Position numbers and translations under genes: made by a program | Source of the DNA: Promethearchaeota archaeon | GTDB lineage: Archaea > Asgardarchaeota > Lokiarchaeia > Sigyniarchaeales > SOKP01 | NCBI GenBank assembly: GCA_048940925.1 | Contig: JBHLOC010000033.1 | Span: forward strand, 1-56,020 | Direction: 5' to 3' | Length of the DNA stretch: 56,020 nt | In this document: one piece after another, positions 6,307-46,996 of the stretch | How positions within the stretch are numbered: position 1 is the first letter of the stretch | How the letters are laid out: each line of letters starts with the position of its first letter | Notes under the pieces: model-generated | What the model saw: the letters and a program-made list of their open reading frames with translations, nothing else | Databases searched by the model: none | What the model was told of the DNA's origin: nothing

Positions 6307-8580
6307 GTGATTATGCGAAAATCAAATATGAATAAAAATATTGTTATAACCATAGTGGGTTTATCAATTTTCTTTTTAGTTATGTCTAATCAGAACACAA
6401 TTTCATTTGCTCAGAAGATTGATAATCCTTTACAAATTCCTTTAAATTTCAAAACTTTTGAATTCTCTGAGAAAAAAGATGCATTAAATAATATAAGTTC
6501 TATAGATATAGAATTACCCTCATCAACTTGGGATATCACATATATTGAAATGAATTTTACAGATATTGAATATGATAAAAGAGAGATAAAAATAATTGAA
6601 GGTAACCCTCTTAATGATGACTTATTTTTAAGTAAAAATAATATAGAAGAACTTGCCGTTCAAATTAAGCTCAACGATACTATAAAGATTTTTGGAATAT
6701 ACCTTGATATAAAAACAATTCTACCTCACACATTGGATGAGATATATCTCCAAATAAGAGGTTATAATACATCAATCAATGCCCCAAATAGTACAATCTA
6801 CGGAAGTGTAGATTTAAATCATACAATAGTAGATGGATGGAATTATCAGAATTTTACAACACCTATCACACTCCCTAAAGGTAATTATTCTTGTGTAATT
6901 GGGGGTTTTATTCAGGCAGCAGGAGAATATCATTGGTATTATAATGACTTAAATCCAAATTATCCAGATTTATATCGATCAGAAAATGATGGTACTGGTT
7001 GGATAAATGGTATTCAAGGATCGCCATTTTTATATAAATTAGATCAAGAGGTCAAGTACAATGATGTTTACCCCGAAGAATTTAATATGACCGCTGAAAT
7101 AAACGGAAACTCTTATAAAATCCTAAATAGTACACATATAGGTTCAGGTATTCTTAAGTTATCCGATATAGATATATCTCCTAATGATGAAATTTTATAT
7201 ATTGCTATTAAGCCTAATAAATTCTTCTTCACCACAAATTATCATCTTAAAATGAACAATCAATTCCTTTCTAATGCTTTTATTTATGTATCAGAAAAAG
7301 AAGATAATATCTGGAAAATTATTCCTGAAATTAATAGATGTAATTATAATTATTCTATTAAAATTGAATTGCCAAATAATTGGTATAATTTAGTCGTAAC
7401 TAAGGATCATATAGATATTACCACATCCGAAGATATCTTGATTGATGGAAATTTTTTAAGTATATTAAATAATTCTATTAATGCTGTTGCCTACTGGGAA
7501 ATTTCAGCCCAATCGCCAAAAATTGACTTTAGCTTAGATCTTAGTAGAGGGACTAAATTTAAAGTAGGTGAAGAATTAATATTTTCGACTATCGCTCCAA
7601 TTAGAGAAGGAAATTTCACTTTCATACTCTATAACAAACTTGGAGCAGAAATAGATAAAAGAATAATACCTGTAACTTCAGATGAAACTATATATTCTTT
7701 CAAGATCGCATCAAACGCCTCTCTTGGCACTTGGACGGCCAATATTTATTGGAATAGCCACAATGATGCCGGTGTTAAATCTCAAGATTTCACAATAAGT
7801 CCCACTCCTTTAGACAGTAATCTTATTCTAATAATCATAATAGGTGCATTGGTAGGGGGTGGGAGTGTAACAAGTTTAACTGTTTATCAAACAATTAAAA
7901 GAAAAAAGAGAAATATTGACTTAAAACTTAAAAGTATATCAAACAAATTTAAAGATATCCTCAGTCTAAATTATTTGATGATCTCAGATATCAAATCGGG
8001 AGTAAATGTATATGAACAATTCTTTATGGGAAAATTTATGGATCCGAGCTTAATCTCAGGCTTTCTAGATGCTATAAGAAACTTTGGAATTGAATTAACT
8101 GGTTCATATAAGAAATCAGAAACATTAAGTCTAGATTACGAAGATTCAATAATTTTAATGAATGAATCAGAAGATTTTAGGATAATTATTGTAATGTCGG
8201 AAAAACCTTCAGAAGAATTCACAAGTTTAATAACGAATTTAGCAAAAGACATTGAGGAAAAATATGGAGATCTACTTCGAAAGTTTAAAGGAGGACAAGT
8301 TACACAATTTGCTGGTTTGAGCGAATTAATTGAAAGGCATCTGAATGTTTCATTTGCTTCTCCTTTAGAGATTGTTTTCCAAAAGAAAGCTAAACTTAAT
8401 ACTGCTGAAAAATCAATTATAGAAAAGGCAAATGTAATTATGAACCAAACCAATTTAAATTATTTTTACACTTCACTATTAATGCCTGATCAAAAGTTTG
8501 ATCCAGATATGACAAAAGTAATATTCGGTTTAATTAATAAAAAAGTATTTCAACCAATTAGTTTAAATTTTGAAGAATAA
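6307..8580 (+). CDS. Single-pass receptor-like protein: signal/TM, large beta-rich ectodomain, TM, cytoplasmic longin-like domain
   Basis: Many NxS/T sequons; TM near aa 507-527; cytoplasmic LMISDIKSGVNVYEQ...DPSLISGFLDAIRNFGIEL longin-type pattern. Confidence 0.7.
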   Translation: MIMRKSNMNKNIVITIVGLSIFFLVMSNQNTISFAQKIDNPLQIPLNFKTFEFSEKKDALNNISSIDIELPSSTWDITYIEMNFTDIEYDKREIKIIEGNPLNDDLFLSKNNIEELAVQIKLNDTIKIFGIYLDIKTILPHTLDEIYLQIRGYNTSINAPNSTIYGSVDLNHTIVDGWNYQNFTTPITLPKGNYSCVIGGFIQAAGEYHWYYNDLNPNYPDLYRSENDGTGWINGIQGSPFLYKLDQEVKYNDVYPEEFNMTAEINGNSYKILNSTHIGSGILKLSDIDISPNDEILYIAIKPNKFFFTTNYHLKMNNQFLSNAFIYVSEKEDNIWKIIPEINRCNYNYSIKIELPNNWYNLVVTKDHIDITTSEDILIDGNFLSILNNSINAVAYWEISAQSPKIDFSLDLSRGTKFKVGEELIFSTIAPIREGNFTFILYNKLGAEIDKRIIPVTSDETIYSFKIASNASLGTWTANIYWNSHNDAGVKSQDFTISPTPLDSNLILIIIIGALVGGGSVTSLTVYQTIKRKKRNIDLKLKSISNKFKDILSLNYLMISDIKSGVNVYEQFFMGKFMDPSLISGFLDAIRNFGIELTGSYKKSETLSLDYEDSIILMNESEDFRIIIVMSEKPSEEFTSLITNLAKDIEEKYGDLLRKFKGGQVTQFAGLSELIERHLNVSFASPLEIVFQKKAKLNTAEKSIIEKANVIMNQTNLNYFYTSLLMPDQKFDPDMTKVIFGLINKKVFQPISLNFEE

Positions 8581-8627
8581 ATTATAAAATTAAATGAAAA
8601 AATATCAACTAATTTAAAGTTTAGAAA

Positions 8628-9086
8628 ATGGACGATATAATTTGGATTCACATCATTGATAGCTCCGGTGCAAATGTTTTTAGTTATGAAAATTATATCA
8701 AAGGCACTTCTGAAGTTAACCTTGCTTTATTATCTCATTTTATCTATGCGTTACAAGCAGTTGCTAAAAATATGGAAGCAGATGAAGTTAAAGAAGTTGA
8801 TATAGATAAAAATAAATTCTTTTTAATTAAGGAAAAACTAACTAATTTCCTCTTTATTATAAAAACTAAACCAAAAGCAAAATCTGATGCAATAACTATA
8901 ATAATAAAAAAAATTAAAGAAAAATTTGTTGAGAAATTTACGGGTCATTTCACATTGCCAGTTCAAGAAAAATTAGAACTTTTAAAAGCTTTTAAAGAAG
9001 ATGTAAAGAGAATAATTGAAGGGAAAAATCAGCGAATAGATTTAATAGATTCCCTCTCAAAGAGTAAAAGAATTACTCGAATTTAA
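8628..9086 (+). CDS. Stand-alone longin-like domain protein
   Basis: IWIHIIDSSGANVFSY...LLSHFIYALQAVA beta-beta-alpha-beta-beta-beta-alpha pattern; 47 nt after the receptor gene. Confidence 0.65.
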   Translation: MDDIIWIHIIDSSGANVFSYENYIKGTSEVNLALLSHFIYALQAVAKNMEADEVKEVDIDKNKFFLIKEKLTNFLFIIKTKPKAKSDAITIIIKKIKEKFVEKFTGHFTLPVQEKLELLKAFKEDVKRIIEGKNQRIDLIDSLSKSKRITRI

Positions 9087-20013: not shown

Positions 20014-20037
20014 TAACAAAAATGTGGATTTATATAT
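20014..20037 (+). promoter_or_regulatory. TGACA-N4-TGTNA-like box plus TATA upstream of the GHCSN-Rab gene
   Basis: TAACAAAAATGTGG-A-TTTATATA; it overlaps the ORF-track ATG at 20022, implying a downstream start. Confidence 0.45.
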
Positions 20038-20102
20038 TTGTATTTTCTTATCAATATATGGGATTACCAATAATAAAAAAAACTGGGCGAATTAGTATAA
20101 AA

Positions 20103-21176
20103 GTGGGATTATTCAAGAAAAGGAGAGAAAAGCCGGTTAAGATATTTAAGATAAATGATTTGGTGGACTTAAGATTAATAAATAACAGGACTCATATCTA
20201 TATCAAGAATGAACCATTCATTATTTGTGCCCACTTATTAATAAATATTCCAATTGAGAATATTCACAATTATGATGATATTAAATCTATTGATGAAACT
20301 ATAGAATCATTTAAATCAACAGAGAAAATCCAATATATGATATCTCCGGAAGAAGAATTCACGGGACATTGTTCAAACATTCAGGCATTTTTCGAGAACG
20401 GATTAAATACAGATATTTTGCATACAAATATTGCATTTCCGTTATTAAGAAAATTAGTAGAATTGAAATTCGAACCAGCCCAAAGAATCTTCAAGGAAGA
20501 AATAGTAATAAGATTTAATGAGGGCACTAAAAGTTCAAGATTTTTCTTAAGTACAGAAGGATATCTCAATTATCTCAATGAAGAAGAAAAGCAGGCATTG
20601 AGAGGTTATAAGACTTCTTGGTTTCAAAAAAAGGGCACTCCTGATTTTATGTTTAAAATAGTTATTGTAGGTGATGATAATGAGGGAAGATCAACATTAG
20701 TACTAGACTATTTAAACTCACGGAATTACAACCCTTTTTCCCCTATTGGAGTAAATTTTGCCACAAAAGACATAGTAATAAATAACATTGCTGTTAGATT
20801 ACAGATTTGGTTTCTTTCTAATCTTAAATTATATGAAAAGCTTTTTGAATTTTTTTTATCTGGAACTTTAGGAGCAATAATAATTTATGATATGACTAAC
20901 ATTAATTCTATGAATAGTGTCCCTAAATGGATCCAAATCATTAGAACAAATAAATGGATTCAATCCAGAGGATATATTCCGATAATCTTGGTAGGGAATA
21001 AATCTGATTTGGAAGAAAACCGTGTTGTATCAAAAGAAGAGGCAATAAAACTTAAAAATATGCAGAACATAACAGAATATATGGAAATTTCTTTGAAAAC
21101 AGGGGAAAATGTTGCTGAGATGTTTAATGAGATTACAAAATTGATATATCCGCATCAAAGGTCTGAGTCCCTATAA
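20103..21176 (+). CDS. GHCSN domain fused N-terminally to a degenerate Rab-like GTPase
   Basis: SIDE...EFTGHCSNIQAF...FPLL, then FKIVIVGDDNEGRS, IGVNF, LQIWFL, GNKSD, EISLKTG. Start re-called to GTG 20103 (MGLFKKRR); ORF track starts at 20022. Confidence 0.8.
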   Translation: MGLFKKRREKPVKIFKINDLVDLRLINNRTHIYIKNEPFIICAHLLINIPIENIHNYDDIKSIDETIESFKSTEKIQYMISPEEEFTGHCSNIQAFFENGLNTDILHTNIAFPLLRKLVELKFEPAQRIFKEEIVIRFNEGTKSSRFFLSTEGYLNYLNEEEKQALRGYKTSWFQKKGTPDFMFKIVIVGDDNEGRSTLVLDYLNSRNYNPFSPIGVNFATKDIVINNIAVRLQIWFLSNLKLYEKLFEFFLSGTLGAIIIYDMTNINSMNSVPKWIQIIRTNKWIQSRGYIPIILVGNKSDLEENRVVSKEEAIKLKNMQNITEYMEISLKTGENVAEMFNEITKLIYPHQRSESL

Positions 21177-22518: not shown

Positions 22519-24243
22519 CTAAAGTACCTCTTTCTGTCTAATAGATGTGTTTAAACCTTCATGTAAAAGGATTAAGCTTAACATTATAAGAAATATAAAA
22601 AAGCTTGGCCAAATGTTTACCCTAAATATCTCGAATTCTGCTCTACCATAAGAAAGGCTTGTCCCTAACTGAGCTGTTCTTTCATCAGCAAGCCCTATAA
22701 ACCCAAGAGATTGATATAACAAGATTGCAAAAGCCATTTCTAAAGGAATATATTTAATTATTCGCTTAGCCATATCAAGATAGTCAGTTCTATATCTTAT
22801 CGCATTAGCTATTATTTGAATGAAAATAATTACTAAAAAAATACCAATCCCAAACACTAATACTGCAACATTCCTATCAAAGACAGGACTGATTATTATA
22901 AAGAACCAAAATGCAGGGATTATAAAGAAGACAATCATAAAACCAATAATAATATTATATATATTTCCATGGAACTTACTTGCAAGAACTCCAAAAAAAG
23001 ATCCTCCGATCAATCCTATAAGGAGTACTAAACTTCCAAAAATAAAAGCATCTCGCGTTCCCCAAATTAATCTTGCAAGTAAGTCATATCCATATTTCGT
23101 AGTTCCTAAGGGATGCGCTTCCGAGGGGGAAGAAAATGGGGCTTCATCAGGAAAATATGGCTTGACTAACTCTTGTAATTTATAAGGAGTAAATAGTTGG
23201 GGGAATAGGGAGATAATAATAAAGAAAACTATTAATCCTAGTCCGACTATAGTATACGGATTTTTAACTATTGCCAATCCATAATTTTTTAATTCAATTC
23301 TAAGATTAACATCTCTTTTGGGTACCATTTCAGTTGGTTGATCGGGACGTGTTGATTGAAAATCATCTCTAATATGAAATAATTCAAATAATTTAGGTGC
23401 TTTTTCTCTAAGGAACTTATATCCAATGGGTACTAAGTTAGATAAAAATATAGTAAAAGTAAATAAAATGACAATTATAAAAATACTCGAATTGTTAACA
23501 AAAAGGTCTCCAAAATATATAGACATGATAAAGTTATACCCAAAACCAGGTAATTGAAATATGATTTCTAACAAAATAATCATGGCAAAAATGTATCCAA
23601 ACAGCTTCGCAGCAATGAATGAATTTGAGACAAATGCAACATTAGGATCTTTATTTTCTAAACTTATACAGGTTTGTTTTATTATAATAGCAATGAATAC
23701 AAAACTTAATGAAATTATAGCTAGTATATAATTTGAAATAGGCAAAGTGTCTTGAAATATATACTGCATTAGGTTACCAATAAAAAATATTGGGGTTGCT
23801 AGTGCTATTGTTGTAAATATTTGTATTATTTTTCCTTGGATTCTATCTGTTTTTCTAGCCCAAATCTTTCCTAGCTTAATCCCACCTACTCCTATTATTA
23901 TAGGGAATATAGCAATTACAATAGTATGAGAGAATGCATCACTTAGTAAGTCAATAGTTTTCATACCAGGGGCTACTACATATGAATTTCCCCAATCCCC
24001 TTTAAAGAAGTTAAGGAGATAATTAATAAACTGGATATATATAGGATCGTTAAATTTATAGTGTAATACTATTTCCTCATATATTATTCTATCTACACCA
24101 CCTTCTATTTTGTTCAAATATTGATTATCTATTCCTACATAAAAAAGAGTAAAGCTAATTATTAACCCGATAAACAAGACACATATCCCATAAATCAAAG
24201 AAAATGAAAAAGTTATTAATATTTTTTTTTGAGTTTCTTTCAA
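22519..24243 (-). CDS. DppB-DppC (Opp/Dpp permease) fusion lacking EAA coupling loops
   Basis: DP...QF..YL.....GDWG.S (DppB); HPLGT...G.D...RL.WG (DppC); no EAA-loop segment in either half. Confidence 0.75.
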   Translation of the reverse strand: MKETQKKILITFSFSLIYGICVLFIGLIISFTLFYVGIDNQYLNKIEGGVDRIIYEEIVLHYKFNDPIYIQFINYLLNFFKGDWGNSYVVAPGMKTIDLLSDAFSHTIVIAIFPIIIGVGGIKLGKIWARKTDRIQGKIIQIFTTIALATPIFFIGNLMQYIFQDTLPISNYILAIISLSFVFIAIIIKQTCISLENKDPNVAFVSNSFIAAKLFGYIFAMIILLEIIFQLPGFGYNFIMSIYFGDLFVNNSSIFIIVILFTFTIFLSNLVPIGYKFLREKAPKLFELFHIRDDFQSTRPDQPTEMVPKRDVNLRIELKNYGLAIVKNPYTIVGLGLIVFFIIISLFPQLFTPYKLQELVKPYFPDEAPFSSPSEAHPLGTTKYGYDLLARLIWGTRDAFIFGSLVLLIGLIGGSFFGVLASKFHGNIYNIIIGFMIVFFIIPAFWFFIIISPVFDRNVAVLVFGIGIFLVIIFIQIIANAIRYRTDYLDMAKRIIKYIPLEMAFAILLYQSLGFIGLADERTAQLGTSLSYGRAEFEIFRVNIWPSFFIFLIMLSLILLHEGLNTSIRQKEVL

Positions 24244-25445: not shown

Positions 25446-26192
25446 TTAATTACTCTCTCTTAATTTTAATTCTTTTCTGAGATTATCTAATTGCTTCTCT
25501 TTTAGACTTATTGTATTTTCCATGATTTTAATTTGATTAATTTTTGATCTTATTTCCTTATCCTTCGATTTAAGAGATTCCTCTAAAATATTTATTTCTT
25601 CATCTTTCTTTTCAATAGTTTTCCCTAATTGTAGAATTTCTTTATCTTTGGATTTTACTAGATCTTGTAAATTTTCAATTTGGTAGTCTTTGTATACTAT
25701 TGAATCTCTTGCTAAGCTGAATTCCAAATTTTTAGTTTCCTTATAGATTATTTCTTGCTCTTTATATTCCAATTCACTCATTAATCCTTCTTCATAAAGT
25801 GCTTTTATAATCGTGAACTCATAAAAAGTATCTGAAAAATCTTTTTCTGTTTCTAATATAAAAACTCGATCTAGGCTTATTTTAGCTGATTTTACAGAAT
25901 TGATAAATTCTATGTTATTGCACGAATTCAGTTTTCTGATAAAAATTATGATATTCGCATTGCTATAATAACTTGGCTTGAGGCTTTTAAAGTCTTTATT
26001 TTGACTCAGAACCCACGCTTGAACTTTTATATTATGATTAAATAGCTTAAATTTTTTAAGATAAAACTCAGCACCAGTTGTTTTTGAACGAGAATCCAAA
26101 AAAATTGAATCTCCAATAATATTTGAAATGATTAGTCCATCAATAACAACCTTGAAAAGAAATTCAGATTGATTTGCCTCAATGACATTCAT
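25446..26192 (-). CDS. Highly degenerate Rab-like domain (P-loop lost) with C-terminal coiled coil
   Basis: FLFKVVIDG, TTGAEF, KVQAW, F..L.PSYY.NA.IIIF; heptad K/E-rich tail. Confidence 0.65.
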   Translation of the reverse strand: MNVIEANQSEFLFKVVIDGLIISNIIGDSIFLDSRSKTTGAEFYLKKFKLFNHNIKVQAWVLSQNKDFKSLKPSYYSNANIIIFIRKLNSCNNIEFINSVKSAKISLDRVFILETEKDFSDTFYEFTIIKALYEEGLMSELEYKEQEIIYKETKNLEFSLARDSIVYKDYQIENLQDLVKSKDKEILQLGKTIEKKDEEINILEESLKSKDKEIRSKINQIKIMENTISLKEKQLDNLRKELKLRESN

Positions 26193-29959: not shown

Positions 29960-30859
29960 CTAATTATCTTCCTCTTCTTCATTTATTTCTTTACCGTTAA
30001 CTTCTCCCTTTAAAACTTTTTTTATCTCTTTTTTGCTTTCTTGGGCATCAGTATCCAATTCTTCTTCTGTGAAAAATAAACCAGTTTCATCTTCAATATC
30101 AAGCTTTGTCATTTTTTCTATGTATCCTTCATATAAATCATCAATGATTATATTTAAATTTGAAATCGAATCTCTGATTTTAGAGTTCTTTTTCAGAGAA
30201 TCTTCGCTTAAACTAATCTCTTCACTGATTTTCTTCACCTCTCTTAACATTTTTTCCAAAGATTCAAATATATACCGGTCATTTAATATTGATGTTATTT
30301 TCCCTTCTTCTGAGATTTTTCTTGTATCCTCCCTAATTTCCCAATATAAATCCTGTATCCAATCTTTGATTAAGGTATCGTTTTCTTTTATACGTTCTTT
30401 ATCACTTTCATCGTACTTTTTTATTTCCTTTATATGGAACCCAGTAAAAATGTCCTCATTCGCTTGCATCTTTTCTGAAAATTTTTTAGCTAAATAAGAT
30501 ATAGTCTCTTCAATCTCAGGGGAAATTTCCAGAGTAGTCATTATTGAAAGCATCAACATTTCTACAAAACCACGAGCCCAATCTGAGTAAATTTGAAAAT
30601 AATAATTTATTAATTTCAAATTTTCGAATGATTGCGTTAAATATTCTTCCTTCTTCGGTTGATTCATAAGATCGAATATTCTATCTGCTATTTCTTTATC
30701 CACCTGAGATTTAGGAAATGAATAAAATATTGATGGCCCTATTTTTGTATGAAAATATGACAAAATTACATTCGTTTTAAACCACGCTCCACTTCCTTCT
30801 ACTCTAAGAATACATAAGAAAATCTCAAAATATAAATTCATAACTATATTCATTTTCAT
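29960..30859 (-). CDS. uDENN/longin (NPRL2/FLCN/SMCR8-like) domain with coiled, acidic tail
   Basis: VILSYFHTKIGPSIFYSFP...FQIYSDWARGFVEMLMLS; start uncertain. Confidence 0.7.
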   Translation of the reverse strand: MKMNIVMNLYFEIFLCILRVEGSGAWFKTNVILSYFHTKIGPSIFYSFPKSQVDKEIADRIFDLMNQPKKEEYLTQSFENLKLINYYFQIYSDWARGFVEMLMLSIMTTLEISPEIEETISYLAKKFSEKMQANEDIFTGFHIKEIKKYDESDKERIKENDTLIKDWIQDLYWEIREDTRKISEEGKITSILNDRYIFESLEKMLREVKKISEEISLSEDSLKKNSKIRDSISNLNIIIDDLYEGYIEKMTKLDIEDETGLFFTEEELDTDAQESKKEIKKVLKGEVNGKEINEEEEDN

Positions 30860-30992: not shown

Positions 30993-31514
30993 TTAATTCC
31001 TTAAATTAATAATTCTACGAGCTAGTTCACAAAATGCCTCTTCAACAATATCTTCATTAGTAGGAGACATTTCAATATAGATGCCTCCCTCATTTCTGGC
31101 AAATTCATGAGCTTCGTCTCGGATAACTGGAATACCTGTCAGTTCAAATAACTGAACATTATCTCCAATTAAAATGAAAGGAATAGGACCAGCTGATTGT
31201 CTAATTTCAGTAAGTAACTTTTTTGTCTCATTATATGTTTGTTCTCGTGTTAAATCAAAAATTAATATAACTCCAGCCGCTCCTTTATAAAATGTATTGC
31301 GAATAAACTCAAAACGTTGCTGTCCTCCTAAATCCCATATGCTTAGAGTCGCAATTTCTCCCTGAGTATATTCTACATCCTTAGTAAGAATATCTACACC
31401 AACAGTTAGCTTGTAATTTGTTTGAAACCTATTTTTGATAAATTGTTGAATTAAGCTGGATTTGTCCACTGCAATATCACCTGCCAATAATACTTTTAAT
31501 TTAAAACTTGACAT
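30993..31514 (-). CDS. Rab-like small GTPase with degenerate G1/G4
   Basis: GDIAVDKS, TVGVD, IWDLGGQQRF, FYKGA; G4 replaced by GDNVQ. Confidence 0.85.
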   Translation of the reverse strand: MSSFKLKVLLAGDIAVDKSSLIQQFIKNRFQTNYKLTVGVDILTKDVEYTQGEIATLSIWDLGGQQRFEFIRNTFYKGAAGVILIFDLTREQTYNETKKLLTEIRQSAGPIPFILIGDNVQLFELTGIPVIRDEAHEFARNEGGIYIEMSPTNEDIVEEAFCELARRIINLRN

Positions 31515-31579: not shown

Positions 31580-32830
31580 TTATATAATGACAGGGACAGC
31601 GATCATTCCTTTTTTAGGCCCTCCTCCCCCTCCAGGAGGTTTAAATATATATGGAAAAGGAAAAAATCCCCCTTCATCATCATCTTTTTTATGTCCGCAC
31701 CAATCGCAAATGTCTTGCCCTTTTCGTAGGACTCTCCAACAATATGAACATCTTGATTCTTTCCTCCGAATTTGTTCTAAAATCATCTGTTTGAGTAATT
31801 TTTTTTTTTCATCTAATTCACCCAATAACATATTATTTAGATTATTGAAAATTATAGCTTCTCTTACGTCTAAAATACCTCTCCTTGGTAAATCCGGTAA
31901 AATTATTTCCTGTCCTGTAATCTTATTTTCAATTACAAGAATACAATCTATAATATCTTCATCCATTTTTTCACTAACATGTCTGAGAAGATTTTCTAAT
32001 GCAGTTTTAAGACTAAATAATAATCGGGGATTCGATCTATAATAGGGTCTCAAAGATGGCATTCTAGATTCTGCCGAAATACTCGAAATTATGATATTTT
32101 TTCCTTCAGGAAGCTTTAGAATTTGTAAAAGAATATCCTCCAGTAAAGTTGGAAACTTAGGAATACAAGATGATAAAAACCGAGACAATATCTTGGGATC
32201 AGATGAGAGCCCTTTAATAAGTTCAGTTGACTCTATTATTGTTTTGAACTCTGAAGGAGTAAAATATTGTATATATCCTTGATTAAGGAGATACTGGACT
32301 ACTGAAGGATATCCGCTCTCGAGTCTTAGAGCAATCTCTTCTTTAAATATTTTACTTGCTAGGGGATCTCCTGCTCTGGTCAACTCTCTTAACAAAGGAA
32401 ATGATATATTACTCATTAATATCCTTGTATCATAATCATACTCTACCCATGCTTGAATATTAGAACAATGCCCCCAAAACTCCTGTTCGGGAGTAATATC
32501 ATGTCTCTGGTTTGGTACAAGAGCTGCCATAGGCCCCCTTACGATTCTATTTTGGAATACATGTTTACTATACAATTTCGCTGCCTCATCTATAGAATCA
32601 ACCTCATCATATAAGGGGACATCTTCTTTCGGGATGTTTAGGATTAAACGAATACACTGGATGAACCTTTTGCCATTTACATAGATAAAAGTCTTTCCAC
32701 GCTCCAACTTGAGTGTGATATATTGATTAATATTTTTTTCGATTGTTGGAGTTGATTTACCTATATCATACCCAGCTATATTGGCATTTAACCAATCAGC
32801 ACCAAAATCATTCTTATCCTTAAATTTCAT
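31580..32830 (-). CDS. GHCSN-domain protein with C-terminal zinc ribbon and FPFPYIFKPP tail
   Basis: SIDE...EFWGHCSNIQAW...FPLL; CSYC..CDWC; DDDEGGFFPFPYIFKPPGGGG. Confidence 0.75.
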   Translation of the reverse strand: MKFKDKNDFGADWLNANIAGYDIGKSTPTIEKNINQYITLKLERGKTFIYVNGKRFIQCIRLILNIPKEDVPLYDEVDSIDEAAKLYSKHVFQNRIVRGPMAALVPNQRHDITPEQEFWGHCSNIQAWVEYDYDTRILMSNISFPLLRELTRAGDPLASKIFKEEIALRLESGYPSVVQYLLNQGYIQYFTPSEFKTIIESTELIKGLSSDPKILSRFLSSCIPKFPTLLEDILLQILKLPEGKNIIISSISAESRMPSLRPYYRSNPRLLFSLKTALENLLRHVSEKMDEDIIDCILVIENKITGQEIILPDLPRRGILDVREAIIFNNLNNMLLGELDEKKKLLKQMILEQIRRKESRCSYCWRVLRKGQDICDWCGHKKDDDEGGFFPFPYIFKPPGGGGGPKKGMIAVPVII

Positions 32831-35647: not shown

Positions 35648-36925
35648 CTATATACCAGACAATTCGTCAATTATGTCTGTATAACAGAGTTCACATATCA
35701 TCGGTTTTCCATTTAGAAATTCATGAATCGAAGTTTGTGATACTTTAGAGCCACAATAAGGGCATTTCAACTCCTTTAATTTCGCTTTAATTCTTTTAGT
35801 TAACCATCCTGGAATAAGTTTAGAATTTTTAAACCATTTTGGTAAGTTTTTTATAAATTTTGGTTTTTCTAAAATGGTATTTAATTCGTCGCTATTCAAA
35901 TATTTCAAATACCCTTCATTTATTAAATACCAAACAACAGAAGGATAACCATTTTCAAGCCTTAGAGCAATTTGCTCTTTAAATACTTTTTTCGCACGTT
36001 TATCTCCTACTTCAACAAGAGCTTTCAAAAGAGGAAATGCTAAACTCCTATGCAAAATACGAGTATCATAATTGCATTCATACCATGTTTGTAAATTGGA
36101 ACAATGTCCCCAAAATTCAGTTTCAGGAGATATATATTCATTTGGTCTACTTCTTTCCATTGATCGATCTAATTTCACTGCAGCTTCGTCTATTGATTCA
36201 ATATTATCAAAACGTTTAAAATTATCACGAGGTAAATTTAACAATAAATATTTACATCGATTAAATAATCGCCCTCCAACATATATATTTGTTTTAGCAT
36301 TTTCTAATCGGAGTTTTAAGTAATCGTTAACTATGAATTCAGACCTAATTTTTCTATCTGTGGATTTTAATAATTTTGGGGGGTCTGCTAGTTCTATTCT
36401 GTCTGATGATAACCTTTTAATTAGTAGATCTCCTAATACTTCGAAAACTCGATCCACATTCTGCCCAGTTTCCGGACATATTTCTGCAAACGCAGAGAGA
36501 TCATTTTTTTCTGCCGCTATAACTCCTTCTTGTTTAGAAACTGCTCGAGATTCTCCTGAATAAAGTTTTGATCCTACCAACATAATTGGGATAGGTCCTC
36601 CCTTCGCTCTTACAATATTCGTCCATTCTGAAATGTTATCTAAAGTAGAAGGTTTAGTAATGTCATACATAAAAATAGCTCCATTAGCACCTAAACAATA
36701 TGTAGGAAGTAGAAATCTAAATCTTTTTTCGCCACCTACATCCCATATTTGTAATTTAATACGTTGGTTATTTAACTCAATGGTTTTGACATGAAAATCA
36801 ACTCCAATTGTTAATCTTTCACTCAAGTTGAAAATGTTATAGCAAAAGCGCTTTGTGAAAGATGTTTTTGCCGCAGGATCATCTCCGAGGAGCAATACTT
36901 TCCAAGTATAATCATAAGTTGACAT
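35648..36925 (-). CDS. Rab-like GTPase - GHCSN domain - zinc ribbon fusion
   Basis: GDDPAAKT, TIGVDF, LQIWDVGGEKRF; EFWGHCSNLQTW; CPYC..CELC. Confidence 0.85.
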   Translation of the reverse strand: MSTYDYTWKVLLLGDDPAAKTSFTKRFCYNIFNLSERLTIGVDFHVKTIELNNQRIKLQIWDVGGEKRFRFLLPTYCLGANGAIFMYDITKPSTLDNISEWTNIVRAKGGPIPIMLVGSKLYSGESRAVSKQEGVIAAEKNDLSAFAEICPETGQNVDRVFEVLGDLLIKRLSSDRIELADPPKLLKSTDRKIRSEFIVNDYLKLRLENAKTNIYVGGRLFNRCKYLLLNLPRDNFKRFDNIESIDEAAVKLDRSMERSRPNEYISPETEFWGHCSNLQTWYECNYDTRILHRSLAFPLLKALVEVGDKRAKKVFKEQIALRLENGYPSVVWYLINEGYLKYLNSDELNTILEKPKFIKNLPKWFKNSKLIPGWLTKRIKAKLKELKCPYCGSKVSQTSIHEFLNGKPMICELCYTDIIDELSGI

Positions 36926-37312: not shown

Positions 37313-37906
37313 ATGACAAAAAAAGTCATATTTGAATCTGAAAAACCAGTATATATATTCAAAATCTGTTTGATTGGTAGTGCTGGAGTGGGAAAGACAT
37401 CTATAGCACAGAGATTATGTTGTGATACATTTGATGCTGGGACGAAATTGACTATTGGAATAGATTTTTATACGTACGATCTGCCAATAATAGTAAATGG
37501 GGAAAATACATTTGTAATGGTTTCAATTTGGGAGTTTGGAGAGCAAAGACAATTTAGAAAATTATTTCCCTACTATATTTGTGGAGCAAATGGAATATTT
37601 TTAGTGTTTGATTTAACACAGATGCAGAGTCTTATCAATTTAGATTGGTGGTATGACAGGTTAGAAGAACATAATATGTTAAATCACCCGAAAACTTTAA
37701 TTGGTACAAAACTCGATTTAGTTGATGAAGAGAGTAATCAATTTAAAGTTAATGAATTGAATATTGAGGAATTCCTTAACAACCATGATGAAAAAGATTT
37801 TATTAAGACTTCTGCGATGAAAGATATCAACATTCGAGACAGCTTTAAAAAGATGATCAAAAAGGTATTAGATTTTAATAACCTTGATTACCAAAGAATA
37901 CCGTGA
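37313..37906 (+). CDS. Rab-like small GTPase with intact P-loop
   Basis: GSAGVGKT, TIGIDF, IWEFGEQ, GTKLD, KTSA. Confidence 0.88.
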   Translation: MTKKVIFESEKPVYIFKICLIGSAGVGKTSIAQRLCCDTFDAGTKLTIGIDFYTYDLPIIVNGENTFVMVSIWEFGEQRQFRKLFPYYICGANGIFLVFDLTQMQSLINLDWWYDRLEEHNMLNHPKTLIGTKLDLVDEESNQFKVNELNIEEFLNNHDEKDFIKTSAMKDINIRDSFKKMIKKVLDFNNLDYQRIP

Positions 37907-38098
37907 GTATTCTTTCGAAAAAATGGTTAAGGATATAACAAAAATGATACTTAAAAGACCACATTATTTTTAACTCTACAATGATATCAGAAGTAATAAA
38001 GTTTAAAATCTGTTAGGACTTCATAATGTTTATATCCTAATTAGACATTTATGTACTTTAAGACGATAATTCTAGGTCTAAAATATTAAAGGTGAAAT

Positions 38099-40036
38099 TT
38101 GATTTCTAATTTAATCAAAAGTTATGCAAATATAAAAGTAATTTATAGACATCTAATTTTAACACTTCTTATAGCAATTTCAAGCCTATTCATAGGTTCG
38201 ATGATAAGCTTTATGCTTATTAATTTGTTACCTGGAGATCCTGTAGCAGCTTATCTTGCTGCATTAGGACAACATAACCCTTCCATAAGTCTTTATCAGC
38301 AGACGAAATGCCAACTTGGATACTGTGATCCTTTAATAGTGCAATATTTTCGATATATAGGAAATATATTTACTGGTGATTGGGGTAGTTCTGTCTCAAT
38401 TACTCGAGGAGAACTAGTTTCTGACTTAATTAAAACACGACTCCCTCCAACAATCGAGTTAAGTATATTACCTATGATAATTGGAATAGGATTAGGAATC
38501 GATCTTGGCAGAATATCATCCATAAAAAAAGGTACTTGGTTAGACAGATTTATTCAAATATTCTGTGGTCTTGGTATCTCAATCCCAGTTTTTTTTTTAG
38601 GAATGCTATTACAATACAATCTCGGTTATAAAGAACAATTATTTGAACCAACAGGATATTTGAGTGCTGAGCTTGAATTTCCGCCATTTGAGACAGGATT
38701 CATAATACTAGATGCTATATTGGCTGGGCAATCTAATTTGATTTGGGATTACCTATGGCATCTGGTCTTACCTGGATTTTGTCTATCAATCGCAACGATT
38801 GCAACAATTACATGGCAAACACGTGCTTATATGTTAAGGAAATCACATAAAAAGACAATCGTATCAAATACAATTATAACAGGAATCAATTTTGGGTTCA
38901 TATTAATGTTTATTATATTATTAGAGACTACATTTGGTCTAGCAGGATTTGGTAAACTCTTTGTAGATGCTCTACATTTATATGATTATTTTGTTATAGC
39001 TGCAATTCTAGCTACAATAATAATAATGTTTATTATCATAACTCTAATTTCAAATTTACTCTTTATCCTTTATAATCTCTTAAAATCCAAGTATTTTGAT
39101 AAAAAATCAGAATTTAGAGTTGAGGATAAAAGAAATAAAGAATATAATAGCGTTACAAACAATTCTGAAGATACTTTAAAAGAGTATTTATTACTCAGAT
39201 TAAAATCTCCTTTATTTATCTTAGGTGCAATTTTCGTTAGTATCTTTATTTTTATTTCACTATTTCCAGAAGTAATAGCAACGCAATCTCTGACAGAAGT
39301 GATGCGAGATCATGCCGGTTCATGGGAAACTCCATCCTCAGAACATCCCTTAGGACAAACAGCAAGCGGAGGTGATGTTTTTTCAAGAACCATTTGGGGT
39401 ATAAGTGATGCGATGCTTTTTGGATTTCTAGTTGTACTTATAGGTTTGATTGGAGGAATTATATTCGGATTTTTCGCTGGTAAATATAATCGCTGGGGAT
39501 ATAAGATTATTATGGGATTTATGTTATTTTTCTATATTTTCCCAGGATTGGTCCTTGTGTTATTATTTCTTGATATTTTTGGACCATATATTATAATTGC
39601 ATTACCCATTATTGGAATATTATTAATTCCTAACTTCACAAGAGCAATTGCTAATACTATGTCGGGAGAGATTGATATCAATAGAATAGTAAAAACAATT
39701 ATTAGGCAGATTCCATTAAATTTTGCAATTGCTATTTTACTCTATTCATCAGTTGGCTTTTTAGGATTTTTTAAAGGAACAATAGTCTCATTAGGTAATG
39801 ATATAAATAGAGCTAGAGAGAATCCATATGAAGCACCTTGGGCTAGTCTATGGCCAGGACTAACAATTTTTGGGATAGCATTCAGTCTTATTATTTTCCA
39901 TATAGGACTGCAAGATTATGATTTGAGAGCTAAGGAATTAAGGAAGAAAATATTGAGAAAAAAATTTGAAATTTTTAAAAAAAAGGGAAAACAAATTTTA
40001 AGAAAAATAAAAAGAAGCCAATTAAAAATAAGTTAA
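38099..40036 (+). CDS. DppB-DppC permease fusion lacking EAA coupling loops
   Basis: LLPGDP, QYFRY....TGDWGSS, HLVLP (DppB); HPLGQT..G.DV.SR..WG, PW..LWPG (DppC); EAA segments absent. Confidence 0.8.
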   Translation: MISNLIKSYANIKVIYRHLILTLLIAISSLFIGSMISFMLINLLPGDPVAAYLAALGQHNPSISLYQQTKCQLGYCDPLIVQYFRYIGNIFTGDWGSSVSITRGELVSDLIKTRLPPTIELSILPMIIGIGLGIDLGRISSIKKGTWLDRFIQIFCGLGISIPVFFLGMLLQYNLGYKEQLFEPTGYLSAELEFPPFETGFIILDAILAGQSNLIWDYLWHLVLPGFCLSIATIATITWQTRAYMLRKSHKKTIVSNTIITGINFGFILMFIILLETTFGLAGFGKLFVDALHLYDYFVIAAILATIIIMFIIITLISNLLFILYNLLKSKYFDKKSEFRVEDKRNKEYNSVTNNSEDTLKEYLLLRLKSPLFILGAIFVSIFIFISLFPEVIATQSLTEVMRDHAGSWETPSSEHPLGQTASGGDVFSRTIWGISDAMLFGFLVVLIGLIGGIIFGFFAGKYNRWGYKIIMGFMLFFYIFPGLVLVLLFLDIFGPYIIIALPIIGILLIPNFTRAIANTMSGEIDINRIVKTIIRQIPLNFAIAILLYSSVGFLGFFKGTIVSLGNDINRARENPYEAPWASLWPGLTIFGIAFSLIIFHIGLQDYDLRAKELRKKILRKKFEIFKKKGKQILRKIKRSQLKIS

Positions 40037-40165: not shown

Positions 40166-41506
40166 ATGACAGAAGACAAATTCTATAAAAAAGGTATTTA
40201 TTTCTATAATAAGAAGAAGTACAGGACAGCATCAAGAAATTTTGAAAAAGCCATTCAAAGCAAACCTGAATTTGAAAAAGCTTGGCTTTACAAAGGCAAA
40301 TCGCTTTATGCCCTTGAAAATTATGGAGAAGCAAAAGTATGCATAGATAGGGCTATAGAATTAAATCCCACATCAGTGGATTCATTACTCTTTAAAGTTG
40401 AATTATCTCTTAAAATTGGTACTTATGAAGAAGCATTAAAATATTGTAATGAAGCCCTAAAAATTCATCCTAATAAATATTGGCTTCAAATGGCCTACAT
40501 TCACGAACGTTTTAAGAATTTTAAAGAAGCCCTAGAATGTATTGAGAAGGCTCTGACTTATAATCCAAATAGTAAAAAACTATTGAGATTAAAATTGGTC
40601 ATGCTCAATGGTTTAGAATATGGAGACAATTATTATATACCAGTAGCAAGATCTTCATTACTTAAGATAATTCCCCCAGAAGATGAGATTATTTATAGCA
40701 CAAATCTTTGTATAACTTGGAAGATTAGACCAGAAGATCAAGAAAGGGCATCTGCTTTAACAGTTCTTAGTGCTTTAATACATCCTTTATTGGCTTCGAT
40801 GGAAATGATTATTCATATTGAGCAAGATAAAGGAACCTTTTTTACAGATGCTTTAATAACTTATGAAGGTTTGGCTTTGCTTATGCCCTCTATTTTTACA
40901 AACGAACCTGATTGGAAGCCAAAACCTCCAAGCTTTAAATATTTACACTGGAATAAGGTATCATTGTCAAGTGGAGGCGAGATGACACTAGGTAGTGTCT
41001 TAAGATGCAACTTAAATCCTATATGGTATTATGAGCCAAGAGAAATATTTGAAAGGAGGAAAAAATTTTTTTACTCTTATATTACAAAGAGAAGATATTA
41101 TTACACAAAAAATTGTTTAGAGAATGCTAAATCATGTACTCAGCGTGAAGAAAATGAGAAAGCAATGCAATGGATTAAAAAGGGATATAGAAGTAATGTG
41201 TATCATCACAAACTTGATTTGAACGATGAATTGATAGCAATTGAAGGCTCAATACACAGGAAAAAAAGATTCGACAAAAAGAAAATGGTTGAAGAGATTG
41301 ATGTCATTTTGACTAATTATTTAAAAAAAAATGAGGGTAAAGCATTTACATCTCATAGTTTATTAGAGAAATTAGACAATGTTATTGAAAATTCTGAAAT
41401 ATTGGAACATTTACAAGATAATATCGAGGGTATATTAAATAGGCTATTATTCAATGGGAAAATTCATTCTAATCGACATGAAGGAAAGGTGTATTATTTC
41501 TTGTAA
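40166..41506 (+). CDS. TPR repeat - PH-like - TPR - wHTH protein (copy A)
   Basis: About 4 N-terminal TPRs; IIPPEDEIIYS...TDALIT.EG..L...YL.W.KV (PH-like); C-terminal GKAFT...ILNRL..NGKI.S....GKVYY wHTH. Confidence 0.7.
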   Translation: MTEDKFYKKGIYFYNKKKYRTASRNFEKAIQSKPEFEKAWLYKGKSLYALENYGEAKVCIDRAIELNPTSVDSLLFKVELSLKIGTYEEALKYCNEALKIHPNKYWLQMAYIHERFKNFKEALECIEKALTYNPNSKKLLRLKLVMLNGLEYGDNYYIPVARSSLLKIIPPEDEIIYSTNLCITWKIRPEDQERASALTVLSALIHPLLASMEMIIHIEQDKGTFFTDALITYEGLALLMPSIFTNEPDWKPKPPSFKYLHWNKVSLSSGGEMTLGSVLRCNLNPIWYYEPREIFERRKKFFYSYITKRRYYYTKNCLENAKSCTQREENEKAMQWIKKGYRSNVYHHKLDLNDELIAIEGSIHRKKRFDKKKMVEEIDVILTNYLKKNEGKAFTSHSLLEKLDNVIENSEILEHLQDNIEGILNRLLFNGKIHSNRHEGKVYYFL

Positions 41507-42481: not shown

Positions 42482-43786
42482 ATGACCGAAGACAAATTCT
42501 ATGCAAAAGGTGTTAATTTCTATAATAAGCAGAAGTATAGGGCAGCATCAAGAAATTTTGAAAAGGTCATTCAAAGCAACCCCGAATTTGAAATGGCATG
42601 GCTTTACAAAAGTAAATCGCTTTATGCTCTTGAAAAGTATGAAGAAGCAAAACTATACATAGATAGAGCCATAGAATTAAATCCCACATCAGTGGATTCA
42701 TTACTCTTTAAAGTTGAATTATCTCTTAAATTTGGTTCTTATGAAGAAGCATTAAAATATTGTAATGAAGCCCTAAAAATTCATCCTAATAAATATTGGC
42801 TCCAAATGGCCTATGTTCACGAACGTTTCAAGAATTTTAAAAAAGCCCTAGAAATTATTGAGAAAGCTTTGACTTATAATCCAAATAGTAAAAAGCTCTT
42901 AAGAATAAAATCGGTTATTCAAAATGGATTGGAATATGGAAATAATTATTATATACCAGTAGCAAGCTCTTCATTACTTAAGTTAATTCCCCCAGAAGAT
43001 GAGATAATTTATAGCACAAATTTGCGTTTAACTTGGGAGGTGGGAACGGAGCTCAGCTTTACTCGCGCTGGAGCTGGGTTATTAGAACCTCATTCGTCGG
43101 ACTCCATTTTTATTGGGCACACTGTGACATTTTTTACAGATGCTCTAATAACTCATGAAGGTTTGGCTTTGCTTATGCCTTCTATAGCTACAAATGAACC
43201 TCCTAGCTTTAAATATTTACCTTGGTCTAAAGTATCATTGTCAAGAAAAGGTAAGATGATACTAAGTAATGGTATAACATGTGCATTAAATCCTCTATGG
43301 TATTATGAACCAAAAGAGATATTTGAAGAACGGTTGAAATTTTTTTACCCTTTTATAATAAATAGAAGATACAATTACACAAAGGAATGCTTAGAGAAAG
43401 CTAAATCATTTGCAGAGCTTGAAGAGAATGAAAAGGCAATACAATGGATTAAAAAAGGATATAAAAGTAATGTATTCAGTCCTAGATTTGATTTGAAAGA
43501 TAAATTAATGACCATTGAGGGCTCAATACACACGAAAATAAGAGTCGACGAAAAGAAAATGATTGAGGAACTTGATGTCATGTTAATTAATTTTTTAAAA
43601 ATTAATGCGGGAAAAGCATTTGCATCTCATAGTTTACTAGAAAGATTAGAGAAAGTTATCGAAAATTCTGAAATGTTGGAATACTTACAAAATAATATCG
43701 AGGGTATCCTAAACAAACTCTTATTCAATGGGAAAATTCAATCTAATCAACATGAAGGAGAACTGTATTATTTCTTGGAGTTATAG
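42482..43786 (+). CDS. TPR repeat - PH-like - TPR - wHTH protein (copy B)
   Basis: Close paralogue of 40166-41506, including about 60 bp upstream; unrelated central insert. Confidence 0.7.
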   Translation: MTEDKFYAKGVNFYNKQKYRAASRNFEKVIQSNPEFEMAWLYKSKSLYALEKYEEAKLYIDRAIELNPTSVDSLLFKVELSLKFGSYEEALKYCNEALKIHPNKYWLQMAYVHERFKNFKKALEIIEKALTYNPNSKKLLRIKSVIQNGLEYGNNYYIPVASSSLLKLIPPEDEIIYSTNLRLTWEVGTELSFTRAGAGLLEPHSSDSIFIGHTVTFFTDALITHEGLALLMPSIATNEPPSFKYLPWSKVSLSRKGKMILSNGITCALNPLWYYEPKEIFEERLKFFYPFIINRRYNYTKECLEKAKSFAELEENEKAIQWIKKGYKSNVFSPRFDLKDKLMTIEGSIHTKIRVDEKKMIEELDVMLINFLKINAGKAFASHSLLERLEKVIENSEMLEYLQNNIEGILNKLLFNGKIQSNQHEGELYYFLEL

Positions 43787-43829: not shown

Positions 43830-44630
43830 TTATATAGAAACGCTAATTCCTGATCTAGCAAGCATTAGTCTTGTTAACGCTTCGAAAGTTTCTTCTACAT
43901 TCGCACCTGTTCTTGGATTACACTCCGCAAAACCATCTACACCTCTTGATTTCGCTATTTTAATTCCTACTTCTCCTGAGATTAGCCTTTCTTCTTCTAA
44001 TTCTGGTATTATTCCTACAACTATAATTGGGAATGCATCTTGCTCTGATTTCATTTCTTTTCTAACAACAAATAACCAATCATCGATGTGTATTAAGGAG
44101 CTATACTTTGCAGCATCATAAATGAATATGGCTCCATTTGCGCCCCGAACATAAGTAGATAATAAAAATCTAAATCTTTCTTCTCCACCAAAATCCCAAA
44201 CTTGTAATTTTATCCTTTTATCATCAACGTCAAGACTCTTAACTTCAAAATCGATGCCTATTCTCATTTTAGAATCTGATCTAAACAAATTAGTTAAAAA
44301 TCTGTGAGTTAAATTAGTTCTTTCTACTCCGGGGTCACCGAACAGTATAACTTTATATGTTGCATCATAGTGTCCCCAATAATGTGACCTATAGATCAAT
44401 TTTTTAGCATCAGGAACTACTTCTTGTTTAGGTAAATAATGTGATCTATAGATCAATTTTTTTGCAGGAGGAACAATTTCTTTTTTAGGATATTTTCTTT
44501 TAATAACTTTAATACTAACACAGATATCCTCATAAAAACTTTTAAGTGAGTTATATAAATGCTCATAAATAAACTCTGCTGGAATGTATCTTAACTTTCT
44601 CTTTTTCCTCCGCTTTTTTAATAACCCCAT
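43830..44630 (-). CDS. Rab-like GTPase with polybasic N-terminal extension and broken P-loop
   Basis: MGLLKKRRKKRK; tandem V.P.AKKLIYRSHY repeat; GDPGVERT, IGIDF, VWDFGGEERF, G4 GIIPE. Confidence 0.85.
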   Translation of the reverse strand: MGLLKKRRKKRKLRYIPAEFIYEHLYNSLKSFYEDICVSIKVIKRKYPKKEIVPPAKKLIYRSHYLPKQEVVPDAKKLIYRSHYWGHYDATYKVILFGDPGVERTNLTHRFLTNLFRSDSKMRIGIDFEVKSLDVDDKRIKLQVWDFGGEERFRFLLSTYVRGANGAIFIYDAAKYSSLIHIDDWLFVVRKEMKSEQDAFPIIVVGIIPELEEERLISGEVGIKIAKSRGVDGFAECNPRTGANVEETFEALTRLMLARSGISVSI

Positions 44631-46042: not shown

Positions 46043-46996
46043 CTATATAACTTTCTTTCTGCATACATGACAGATTGATTGCCCTTTTGGGAGTTCGGCT
46101 CCACAATATTTACAATAAAATTCTTCCTCTGGAACCTTTTCTGTTGGGGGGTGTTTTGCTATTGGCTCCCCTACTATTCCTAGATCTTCAGGTAGAGTAG
46201 GTGGTTTAAAAATGTAAGGAAATGGAAAATTTTCATCTTCATCACCGGTGATTTTTTTCATTTTTATAACATTACCGATAACGTTAGTTAAAATGCCGTT
46301 ATACCAAAGATATAATGTAACTGATCTTTTAAAAATTGGAAGTCCATCATCCTGAGAGATTTCTAATAGCTCAGCACTGAATATTTCCGGAAGATATTGT
46401 CTCTCAATTGTTAATTCATTAACGGATTCTTTTTCCATCGCACTTTCGATTTTATTTATTGCTGATTCCATAGATTGTTCGAATTTTCTATTTATCTCTA
46501 AAAATTCTGAGAGTAATGCTTTTCTAAAGATTTTAATGTATAGTTCATCTAACCATGTTTTTATCAGAGCTTCATTCTTTATTACGGTATCTTTATCATT
46601 TTCATGATAATTTAAATCTTTTATATAAAAAGCAGTGAATATTTCTTTATTGGATTGTAATCGCTCGGAAAATTCTTTACATAAATTTGATATTTTTTCT
46701 TCTATTTCTGGAGATAAGTGCTGATCAACAATTGTAGAAACCATTAGCATTTCCTTATTCCCACGAGCCCAATCGGAATGAATCTCAAAATAATAATTCA
46801 AGGATCTTAAATTTTCGAAAGATTGTGTCAAAAATTCTTCCTTCTTCGGTTGATTCATAAGATCAAATATTCTATCTGCTACTTCTTTATCCACCTGAGA
46901 TTTTGGAAATGAATAAAATATTGATGGACCAATTTTAGGATGAAACCATGACAAAGCCACGATTGTCTTCAATAACTGAGGTGTGGTGGGTTCCAT
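46043..46996 (-). CDS. uDENN/longin (NPRL2/FLCN-like) domain + FPFPYIFKPP motif + zinc ribbon
   Basis: VALSWFHPKIGPSIFYSFP...FEIHSDWARGNKEMLMVS; DEDENFPFPYIFKPP; CKYC..CHVC. Confidence 0.72.
   Translation of the reverse strand: MEPTTPQLLKTIVALSWFHPKIGPSIFYSFPKSQVDKEVADRIFDLMNQPKKEEFLTQSFENLRSLNYYFEIHSDWARGNKEMLMVSTIVDQHLSPEIEEKISNLCKEFSERLQSNKEIFTAFYIKDLNYHENDKDTVIKNEALIKTWLDELYIKIFRKALLSEFLEINRKFEQSMESAINKIESAMEKESVNELTIERQYLPEIFSAELLEISQDDGLPIFKRSVTLYLWYNGILTNVIGNVIKMKKITGDEDENFPFPYIFKPPTLPEDLGIVGEPIAKHPPTEKVPEEEFYCKYCGAELPKGQSICHVCRKKVI

Follow-up and report, generated by a model that had tools for sequence, protein, structure and literature searches.

What role is left for an ATP-binding cassette (ABC) peptide permease that has lost the face through which ATPases drive it? 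This question is raised by a 56,020-nucleotide stretch of DNA from a Promethearchaeota archaeon (GCA_048940925.1, JBHLOC010000033.1), referred to here as the window, which is the entire contig C11 of genome G000 (4.8 Mb, 29.6% GC). Named homologues and Atlas clusters agree with a Promethearchaeota/Lokiarchaeota origin. The window encodes a DppB-DppC fusion, here called copy 2, that has neither of the two EAA motifs and coupling helices of such permeases. A sequence-only reading had proposed that this protein is a peptide transceptor signalling to small GTPases. We find that the EAA-less permease is a real, conserved family, not just a pair of genes, and that it is a mosaic: the membrane and cytoplasmic parts fall into a single EAA-less clade and the outer loops group with canonical permease classes. 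Our tentative explanation, to which we give somewhat less than an even chance, is a dock for DppA binding proteins that works without an ATPase and probably does not transport.

Copy 2 is a permease fold with two deletions

Sequence and domain matches divide copy 2 into a DppB-like and a DppC-like half with 12 hydrophobic segments, and the protein has the BPD_transp_1 domains and two six-helix halves of a type I permease. The AlphaFold model (pLDDT 83.8, pTM 0.84) has short turns linking transmembrane helix 4 (TM4) to TM5, and its C half aligns with E. coli DppC (8z1w_B) with Z 27.3 and a root-mean-square deviation of 2.2 over 251 residues. Copy 2 scores under every NCBIfam equivalog cut-off.

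The double deletion described in the sequence-only reading is present, with both quoted strings found at the TM4-TM5 junctions (Table 1). Forty-four residues separate the anchors in the B half versus 67 in intact DppB, and 48 versus 70 in the C half (six intact G000 sequences aligned for each); 23 and 22 residues are missing, and the EAA motif and coupling helix are absent in both halves. A contig from a second run (X2) spans 37904-39841 with nine differences and no gap, over both deletions and the B-C junction. Neither the deletions nor the fusion is therefore an assembly error. The reading was also right that a diverged second copy exists (33% identical to copy 2), and G000 has a third EAA-less copy on contig C84.

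A conserved family under purifying selection

From 135 genomes of the window's family, searched with a profile, 58 candidate regions were fetched, 57 of them with EAA-less genes. They contain at least 74 EAA-less open reading frames (ORFs), at 57 loci spread over 48 related genomes, a lower bound taken among the 150 of 257 matches listed. Most are fused, some are split, and tandem copies are frequent. In a homologue search, 35 of 38 matches are members of the family, and the register of the B-half deletion is identical in all 35 fused homologues and recurs in the locus set. A sister family within the window's order (G270, G272, G276) has fused EAA-less genes as well. Loci fetched from G264, G277, G303, G383 and G384 contain unfused permeases of normal length; the phylum-wide search scored three candidates per genome, so that absence outside the order is weakly supported.

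The ratio of nonsynonymous to synonymous substitution (dN/dS) has a median of 0.25 in inner segments and 0.42 in outer segments, based on 30 close, non-independent pairs. It is below 1 for inner segments and at most 1 for outer segments in every pair, and the outer value exceeds the inner in 29 of 30. A few family members are split or seemingly frameshifted. The earlier argument that the copies are not decaying is borne out by this conservation and purifying selection.

Several relatives have unusual architectures. Seven members of 759-829 amino acids (L039, L040, L042, L045, L048, L063, L066) have an extra N-terminal membrane domain that belongs to a multi-copy family; it has nine matches in G000 and is a separate neighbouring gene at four loci. 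Its identity with the small protein upstream of canonical dppB was considered and rejected (probability 0.8%). P0177 is a deep-branching fusion of 895 amino acids in which the B coupling helix is degenerate and the C coupling helix deleted; a search of 400 phylum genomes at 1e-75 did not recover it. One EAA-less clade (L073, L074, L076, L080-L083) lies near what we take to be an ESCRT-III/Vps4-like cluster in 6-7 genomes. The neighbour names GlnA, NadE, CarB, Lrp and Vps4 are likewise presumptive readings of the sequence.

The ATPase face is lost

The canonical sets were defined by an EAA regular expression, which makes EAA counts circular, and other motifs were compared instead. D.R[IV] is found in 0/68 EAA-less versus 70/70 canonical sequences, RQ[TS]R[SA] in 0/68 versus 67/70, G[DE]GLRD in 0/71 versus 45/53, and an H-containing motif ahead of TM5 of the C half in 1/71 versus 53/53. 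In the alignment, glycines of TM4-6 are replaced by bulky residues, with changes at B267, B271, C509, C548 and C601. At B271 the canonical glycine (100%) becomes phenylalanine (45%), serine or tyrosine, and at C601 (also 100% glycine) histidine or tyrosine; C548 goes from 60% glycine to leucine or isoleucine and C509 from 68% glycine to 79% leucine.

No DppD/F gene and no binding-protein gene was found at the 57 loci, whose flanks are often short, and none lies beside copy 2. Copy 3 of G000, outside this set, lies 1.1 kb from a binding-protein gene in convergent orientation. Apparent ATPase neighbours at family loci proved to be MsbA-type exporter pairs (one checked) and UvrA. DppD/F genes are retained elsewhere in 50 of 51 carrier genomes, and canonical systems therefore persist. 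G000 has 13 binding-protein loci versus four DppD/F pairs, and the sequence of DppA here indicates an N-terminal membrane anchor.

In E. coli DppBCDF, according to the accessible part of PMC12136057, the EAA coupling helix mediates each permease-ATPase contact and a scoop motif adjacent to TM1 binds the DppA cleft and unloads DppA. With both EAA helices gone and no DppD/F gene at the 57 loci, copy 2 is, as the sequence-only reading supposed, very probably uncoupled from an ABC ATPase.

The outer face resembles resident permeases

The loops that normally contact the binding protein were said to be kept, and PGDP, GDWGSS and HPLG are all found in copy 2, which by sequence appears to have both these loops and the scoop motif. 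Its five outer segments are 58-79% identical to C3 DppBC, versus just 17-36% for TM1, TM5 and TM6. Between the inner segments of copies 2 and 3, identity is 43-73% (three short fragments were left out of these comparisons).

Trees of inner segments recover a single EAA-less clade (support 1.0 and 0.997, with one label change), which persists when the sister family and EAA-intact fusions are added (0.972; long-branch attraction is possible). In trees of outer segments, EAA-less genes are interspersed with three canonical classes, with three and seven label changes.

Best outer matches were compared with 70 canonical DppB and 53 canonical DppC, using 2000 shuffles of genome labels. In 17 of 51 B halves (13 genomes; shuffle mean 1.7, maximum 8) and 11 of 49 C halves (9 genomes; shuffle mean 2.0, maximum 9), this match lies in the genome that carries the EAA-less gene. 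By inner segments this holds for 1/51 and 1/49, a soft control since these are near saturation (31-32%). Such a preference for the own genome is not expected from one old duplication followed by vertical descent.

These results make it probable that the outer face binds a ligand common to the canonical permease, and the membrane-anchored DppA binding protein is the likely ligand. A complex prediction with C3 DppA, using residues 22-440 of copy 2 only, scored 0.02 (mark 0.32), a value that weighs neither for nor against binding.

One conversion tract and possible older exchange

One conversion tract was identified, in L068 (G043), which has a 342-nucleotide stretch with 81% identity to its own genome's dppC, including an exact run of 65 nucleotides, after which the sequence is of EAA-less type again. 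The tract also covers TM1 of DppC and the cytoplasmic segment with which the protein starts. This is gene conversion, since an assembly chimera would match at close to 100% rather than 81%.

In copy 2, tracts similar to G000 C3-class genes are centred on outer loops, with identities of 67%, 72-78% and 78-85%. The first also spans TM2-3, and a 32-nucleotide exact run is present. Exact runs of at least 24 nucleotides occur within the own genome for 2 of 58 genes versus 3 of 2320 cross-genome pairs. On these counts, and on the fourfold-site values given below, we rejected recent gene conversion on a wide scale.

The neighbouring Rab and the proposed GTPase circuit

Copy 2 lies downstream of a Rab-like ORF on the same strand, as had been noted, with 192 bp between them. 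The Rab had been called intact. Its G1 and G4 motifs match and a G5-like SAM is present in the translation, but G3 is broken: it reads WEFGEQ where 15 of 15 matched related ORFs (9 of 11 loci) read WDFGGQ, and EFGE stands in place of the DxxG of an active Rab. The protein is possibly a pseudo-GTPase. Its relatives occur in tandem clusters, such as that on G000 contig C21, and none of the 11 loci of its relatives has a permease within 1.5 kb.

An absence of GTPase association in other genomes had been named as the refuting result. A small GTPase is found at 4 of 57 family loci and adjoins the permease at one (L077, 69 bp); an apparent fifth was IF2, and the count was lowered accordingly. For comparison, among the 1874 long ORFs of G000, 443 lie no more than 8 kb from a Rab-like gene and 77 no more than 500 bp, a background to be read with the facts that locus flanks are often shorter than 8 kb and that Rab baselines for other genomes are rough (39-92 first-look candidates each). 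Roadblock genes are found at 0/57 loci. This is the refuting result that had been named: GTPase association is at or below background, and the proposed signalling to small GTPases is not supported. The window's contig is GTPase-rich, holding 10 of the 95 Ras-family matches of G000, which makes the adjacency unremarkable. The Rab at 37313 looks like a chance neighbour of copy 2.

The polybasic C-tail had been correctly described (Table 1). A tail with net charge +8 or more occurs in 1 of 71 members, the median tail is 9 amino acids, and that of P0002 is basic but shorter. The family thus has no conserved cytoplasmic extension for a partner, as an SLC38A9-like transceptor coupled to GTPases would need.

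The nutrient-sensing circuit drawn from neighbouring genes is not supported. Roadblock and NPRL2/FLCN-like genes do occur in the window, and the ORF at 46043 is supported by predicted structure as having an NPRL2/FLCN-like domain (TM-score 0.63-0.68). Its linkage to the permease did not hold up, since NPRL2-like genes are absent in the fetched loci. The ORFs at 29960-30859 and 46043-46996 are paralogues with an NPRL2/FLCN-like longin fold in predicted structures and have eight relatives in G000. Domains like these occur fused to small GTPases in the Atlas.

A proposed motorless dock and its alternatives

We propose that a Dpp permease pair was uncoupled from its ATPase in a single event, in a common ancestor of two or more families within one Promethearchaeota order. 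The copies would then have been retained as a motorless dock, with the 12-helix fold kept under purifying selection and the outer loops kept matched to a canonical DppBC that the same genome carries, at least once through gene conversion. Selection would maintain an outer face like that of a working permease, the motor face having been discarded. The simplest ligand shared with the working permease is DppA. The lack of a motor and the bulky replacements of small TM5 residues suggest, less strongly, that nothing is translocated. A dock of this kind may hold or unload DppA and so compete with, or buffer, ATP-driven peptide uptake. A non-transporting modulator seems to us slightly favoured over a receptor or facilitator.

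Several observations weigh against this explanation. Only a third of B halves and a fifth of C halves have their top outer match in the own genome, and the canonical set is partial, was chosen by score to the fusion profile and includes non-independent kin. The outer motif G.WG.S is found in 35/66 EAA-less versus 68/70 canonical sequences, WG.[DE][IV] in 0/71 versus 51/53, and some members lack entire outer loops. Fourfold-site identity of outer loops is 41% within the own genome versus 36% with others, near background; most exchange is therefore old and held by protein-level selection, or convergent. The presumed pore role of the glycine positions comes from alignment. Inner residues conserved specifically in the family (K532 in 90%, P539 in 97%, S318/N319, H/Y601) could equally fit signalling or transport. 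The benefit to the host of a brake on uptake is hypothetical, and the dock as a whole is argued from sequence, trees and predicted structure.

Dock, receptor and importer share one docking face and differ in output. As a receptor (transceptor), the protein would shift its helices when liganded DppA docks, and an unlinked cytoplasmic protein would read that shift. A regulator of small GTPases is conceivable as the partner, with nothing pointing to the Rab at 37313. The outer-face evidence (trees, own-genome matches, conversion tract) fits this as well as it fits the dock. Stronger constraint on inner than outer segments and the family-specific residues are in its favour, as is one syntenic clade beside genes we take to be GlnA-like and Lrp-like (11 and 9 genomes). 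However, no neighbour is common across clades, no fused cytoplasmic signalling domain was found in 32 long or divergent members scanned or, in a weak search, among longer proteins, tails are short, and GTPase association does not exceed background. We consider a receptor unlikely. The broader statement that an importer membrane domain became an ATPase-free receptor or regulator, with outer loops copied from resident permeases and an inner face for a new cytoplasmic partner, is to us similarly doubtful.

An ATP-independent importer, in which DppA feeds a facilitator or ion-coupled carrier built on the ABC permease fold, would follow the same logic as TRAP transporters and save ATP in energy-poor sediment. 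Both halves are retained, usually fused, with the fold intact, and copy 2 keeps the scoop region, which in E. coli unloads DppA (PMC12136057, accessible part). Yet bulky residues stand in place of the small TM5 ones, the family residue comparison showed no new invariant charged residue in TM4-6, and the ATP-driven system is retained in nearly all carriers. This makes such an importer quite improbable.

A further alternative is a decoy, for a virus or toxic peptide that targets the working permease at its outer face. It could account for outer loops that evolve faster than inner ones and track resident permeases, and for the frequent tandem copies. No defence-island context was seen among neighbour clusters, outer dN/dS never exceeds 1, and DppA binding is a simpler account of this pattern; we regard a decoy as very unlikely. 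The protein could instead still be an ABC importer, one that uses DppD/F in trans by way of a rebuilt interface. This reading gains from the presence of DppD/F in almost every carrier and from the orphan canonical B and C genes of G000, which must already rely on ATPases in trans. It is highly improbable given that both coupling helices and their flanking motifs are gone, that the model has only short TM4-TM5 turns, and that each contact between transmembrane and nucleotide-binding domains in E. coli DppBCDF is made through a coupling helix (accessible part of PMC12136057). A decaying pseudogene or assembly artefact, suggested by the few split or seemingly frameshifted members, is already largely refuted by the independent contig, the number of ORFs and genomes and the inner dN/dS values, and its chance is close to nil.

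Comparison with known systems

The nearest known systems are DppBC/OppBC (TC 3.A.1.5; E. coli DppBC, PDB 8z1v/8z1w), which share BPD_transp_1, the 6+6 helices and the scoop region. Unlike them, copy 2 lacks the EAA helices and cytoplasmic motifs, its B and C are usually fused in the family, and its locus has no ATPase or binding-protein gene, both being encoded elsewhere in the genome. Ordinary DppB-DppC fusions (P0036, P0130, P0139) are also single-chain B+C proteins but keep both EAA motifs and branch outside the EAA-less clade.

SLC38A9-Rag-Ragulator, to which copy 2 had been likened, has an unrelated fold, and the idea of a transporter-like sensor is the sole likeness. In contrast to SLC38A9, the EAA-less family has no cytoplasmic signalling extension, and its genes are not consistently linked to those for GTPases, Roadblock or NPRL2-like proteins. 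TRAP transporters use a binding protein without ATP, with a fold that differs from the ABC permease. Sensing ABC systems (PstSCAB-PhoU, BceAB-BceS) involve the membrane part in sensing and keep ATPases and coupling helices.

A related-locus search returned a canonical operon only. Across titles and abstract openings of mostly open-access literature, we found no EAA-less DppBC and no such Asgard fusion. The main text of an Asgard transporter survey describes TC 3.A.1.5 systems as abundant and does not mention EAA (PMC7997004). The family is apparently an undescribed variant of the ABC peptide permease.

Other features of the window and of canonical loci

Table 1. Features of copy 2 and related genes, with positions in the window (aa, amino acids; nt, nucleotides)
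Position	Strand	Feature	Remarks
22519-24243	-	Copy 1, both deletions as in copy 2	Outer loops nearest C74-class canonical paralogue (34-59%, four of five loops)
37313-37906	+	Rab-like small GTPase ORF	Altered G3 (ExxE for DxxG)
38099-40036	+	EAA-less DppB-DppC fusion (copy 2)	645 aa, 12 predicted TM helices; BPD_transp_1 domains
38228-38434	+	First outer loop, B half (aa 44-112), scoop-motif region	70% identity to C3 DppB of G000
38609-38764	+	Second outer loop, B half (aa 171-222)	63% to C3 DppB; largely absent in copies 1 and 3
38816-38872	+	TM4-TM5 junction, B half; 23-aa EAA/coupling-helix deletion	From alignment
38924-38995	+	Third outer segment, B half (aa 276-299)	79% to C3 DppB
39074-39199	+	Cytoplasmic B-C linker	Low model confidence; stands in place of DppB C-terminal DPR motif
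39266-39394	+	First outer loop, C half (HPLG; aa 390-432)	58% aa, 72-78% nt to C3-class DppC
39635-39700	+	TM4-TM5 junction, C half; 22-aa EAA/coupling-helix deletion	From alignment
39764-39862	+	Last outer loop, C half (aa 556-588)	Includes 32-nt exact run (~39812-39843) with G000 canonical dppC
39917-40033	+	Polybasic cytoplasmic tail, 39 residues, net charge +14	Not shared family-wide

A domain without a Pfam match recurs in the ORFs at 3356-4495, 20022-21176, 31580-32830 and 35648-36925. It is fused N- or C-terminally to a Rab-like domain in three of them and occurs without Rab at 31580. By eye, the Rab-like ORFs at 30993-31514, 35648-36925, 43830-44630 and 25446-26192 have an altered P-loop or G4, and one of them ends in a long coiled coil. 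The ORFs at 40166-41506 and 42482-43786 encode TPR-protein paralogues that alternate with Rab-like genes, which suggests local tandem duplication. The region 6307-9086 encodes a 757-amino acid protein of secreted type that has one transmembrane helix and ends in a cytoplasmic domain; a small ORF, longin-like by eye, comes next. The proteins of this region have no Pfam or NCBIfam match.

Elsewhere in G000 there are orphan canonical dppB, dppC or dppBC genes with no ATPase genes nearby (C84:29812, C45:16996, C77:106983, C58:11076-13138) and many orphan binding proteins, one within a 1225-amino acid protein (C55). Most canonical operons have a small membrane protein between dppA and dppB (L108:3171-3614 and 23 other listed matches, some of which duplicate G000 loci). 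It has no NCBIfam match and is a possible extra subunit.

Significance

Type I ABC permeases are taken to require a coupling helix, and here a multi-copy family under selection lacks it. The fold would have been retained for a job that needs no ATP motor, as a dock, brake, receptor or facilitator, and the mosaic names the likely binding partner of each copy. Automated annotation calls EAA-less genes ordinary permeases, and peptide importers may be overcounted. The hosts are peptide-eating Asgard archaea, and the family bears on the evolution of sensors from transporters near the origin of eukaryotes.

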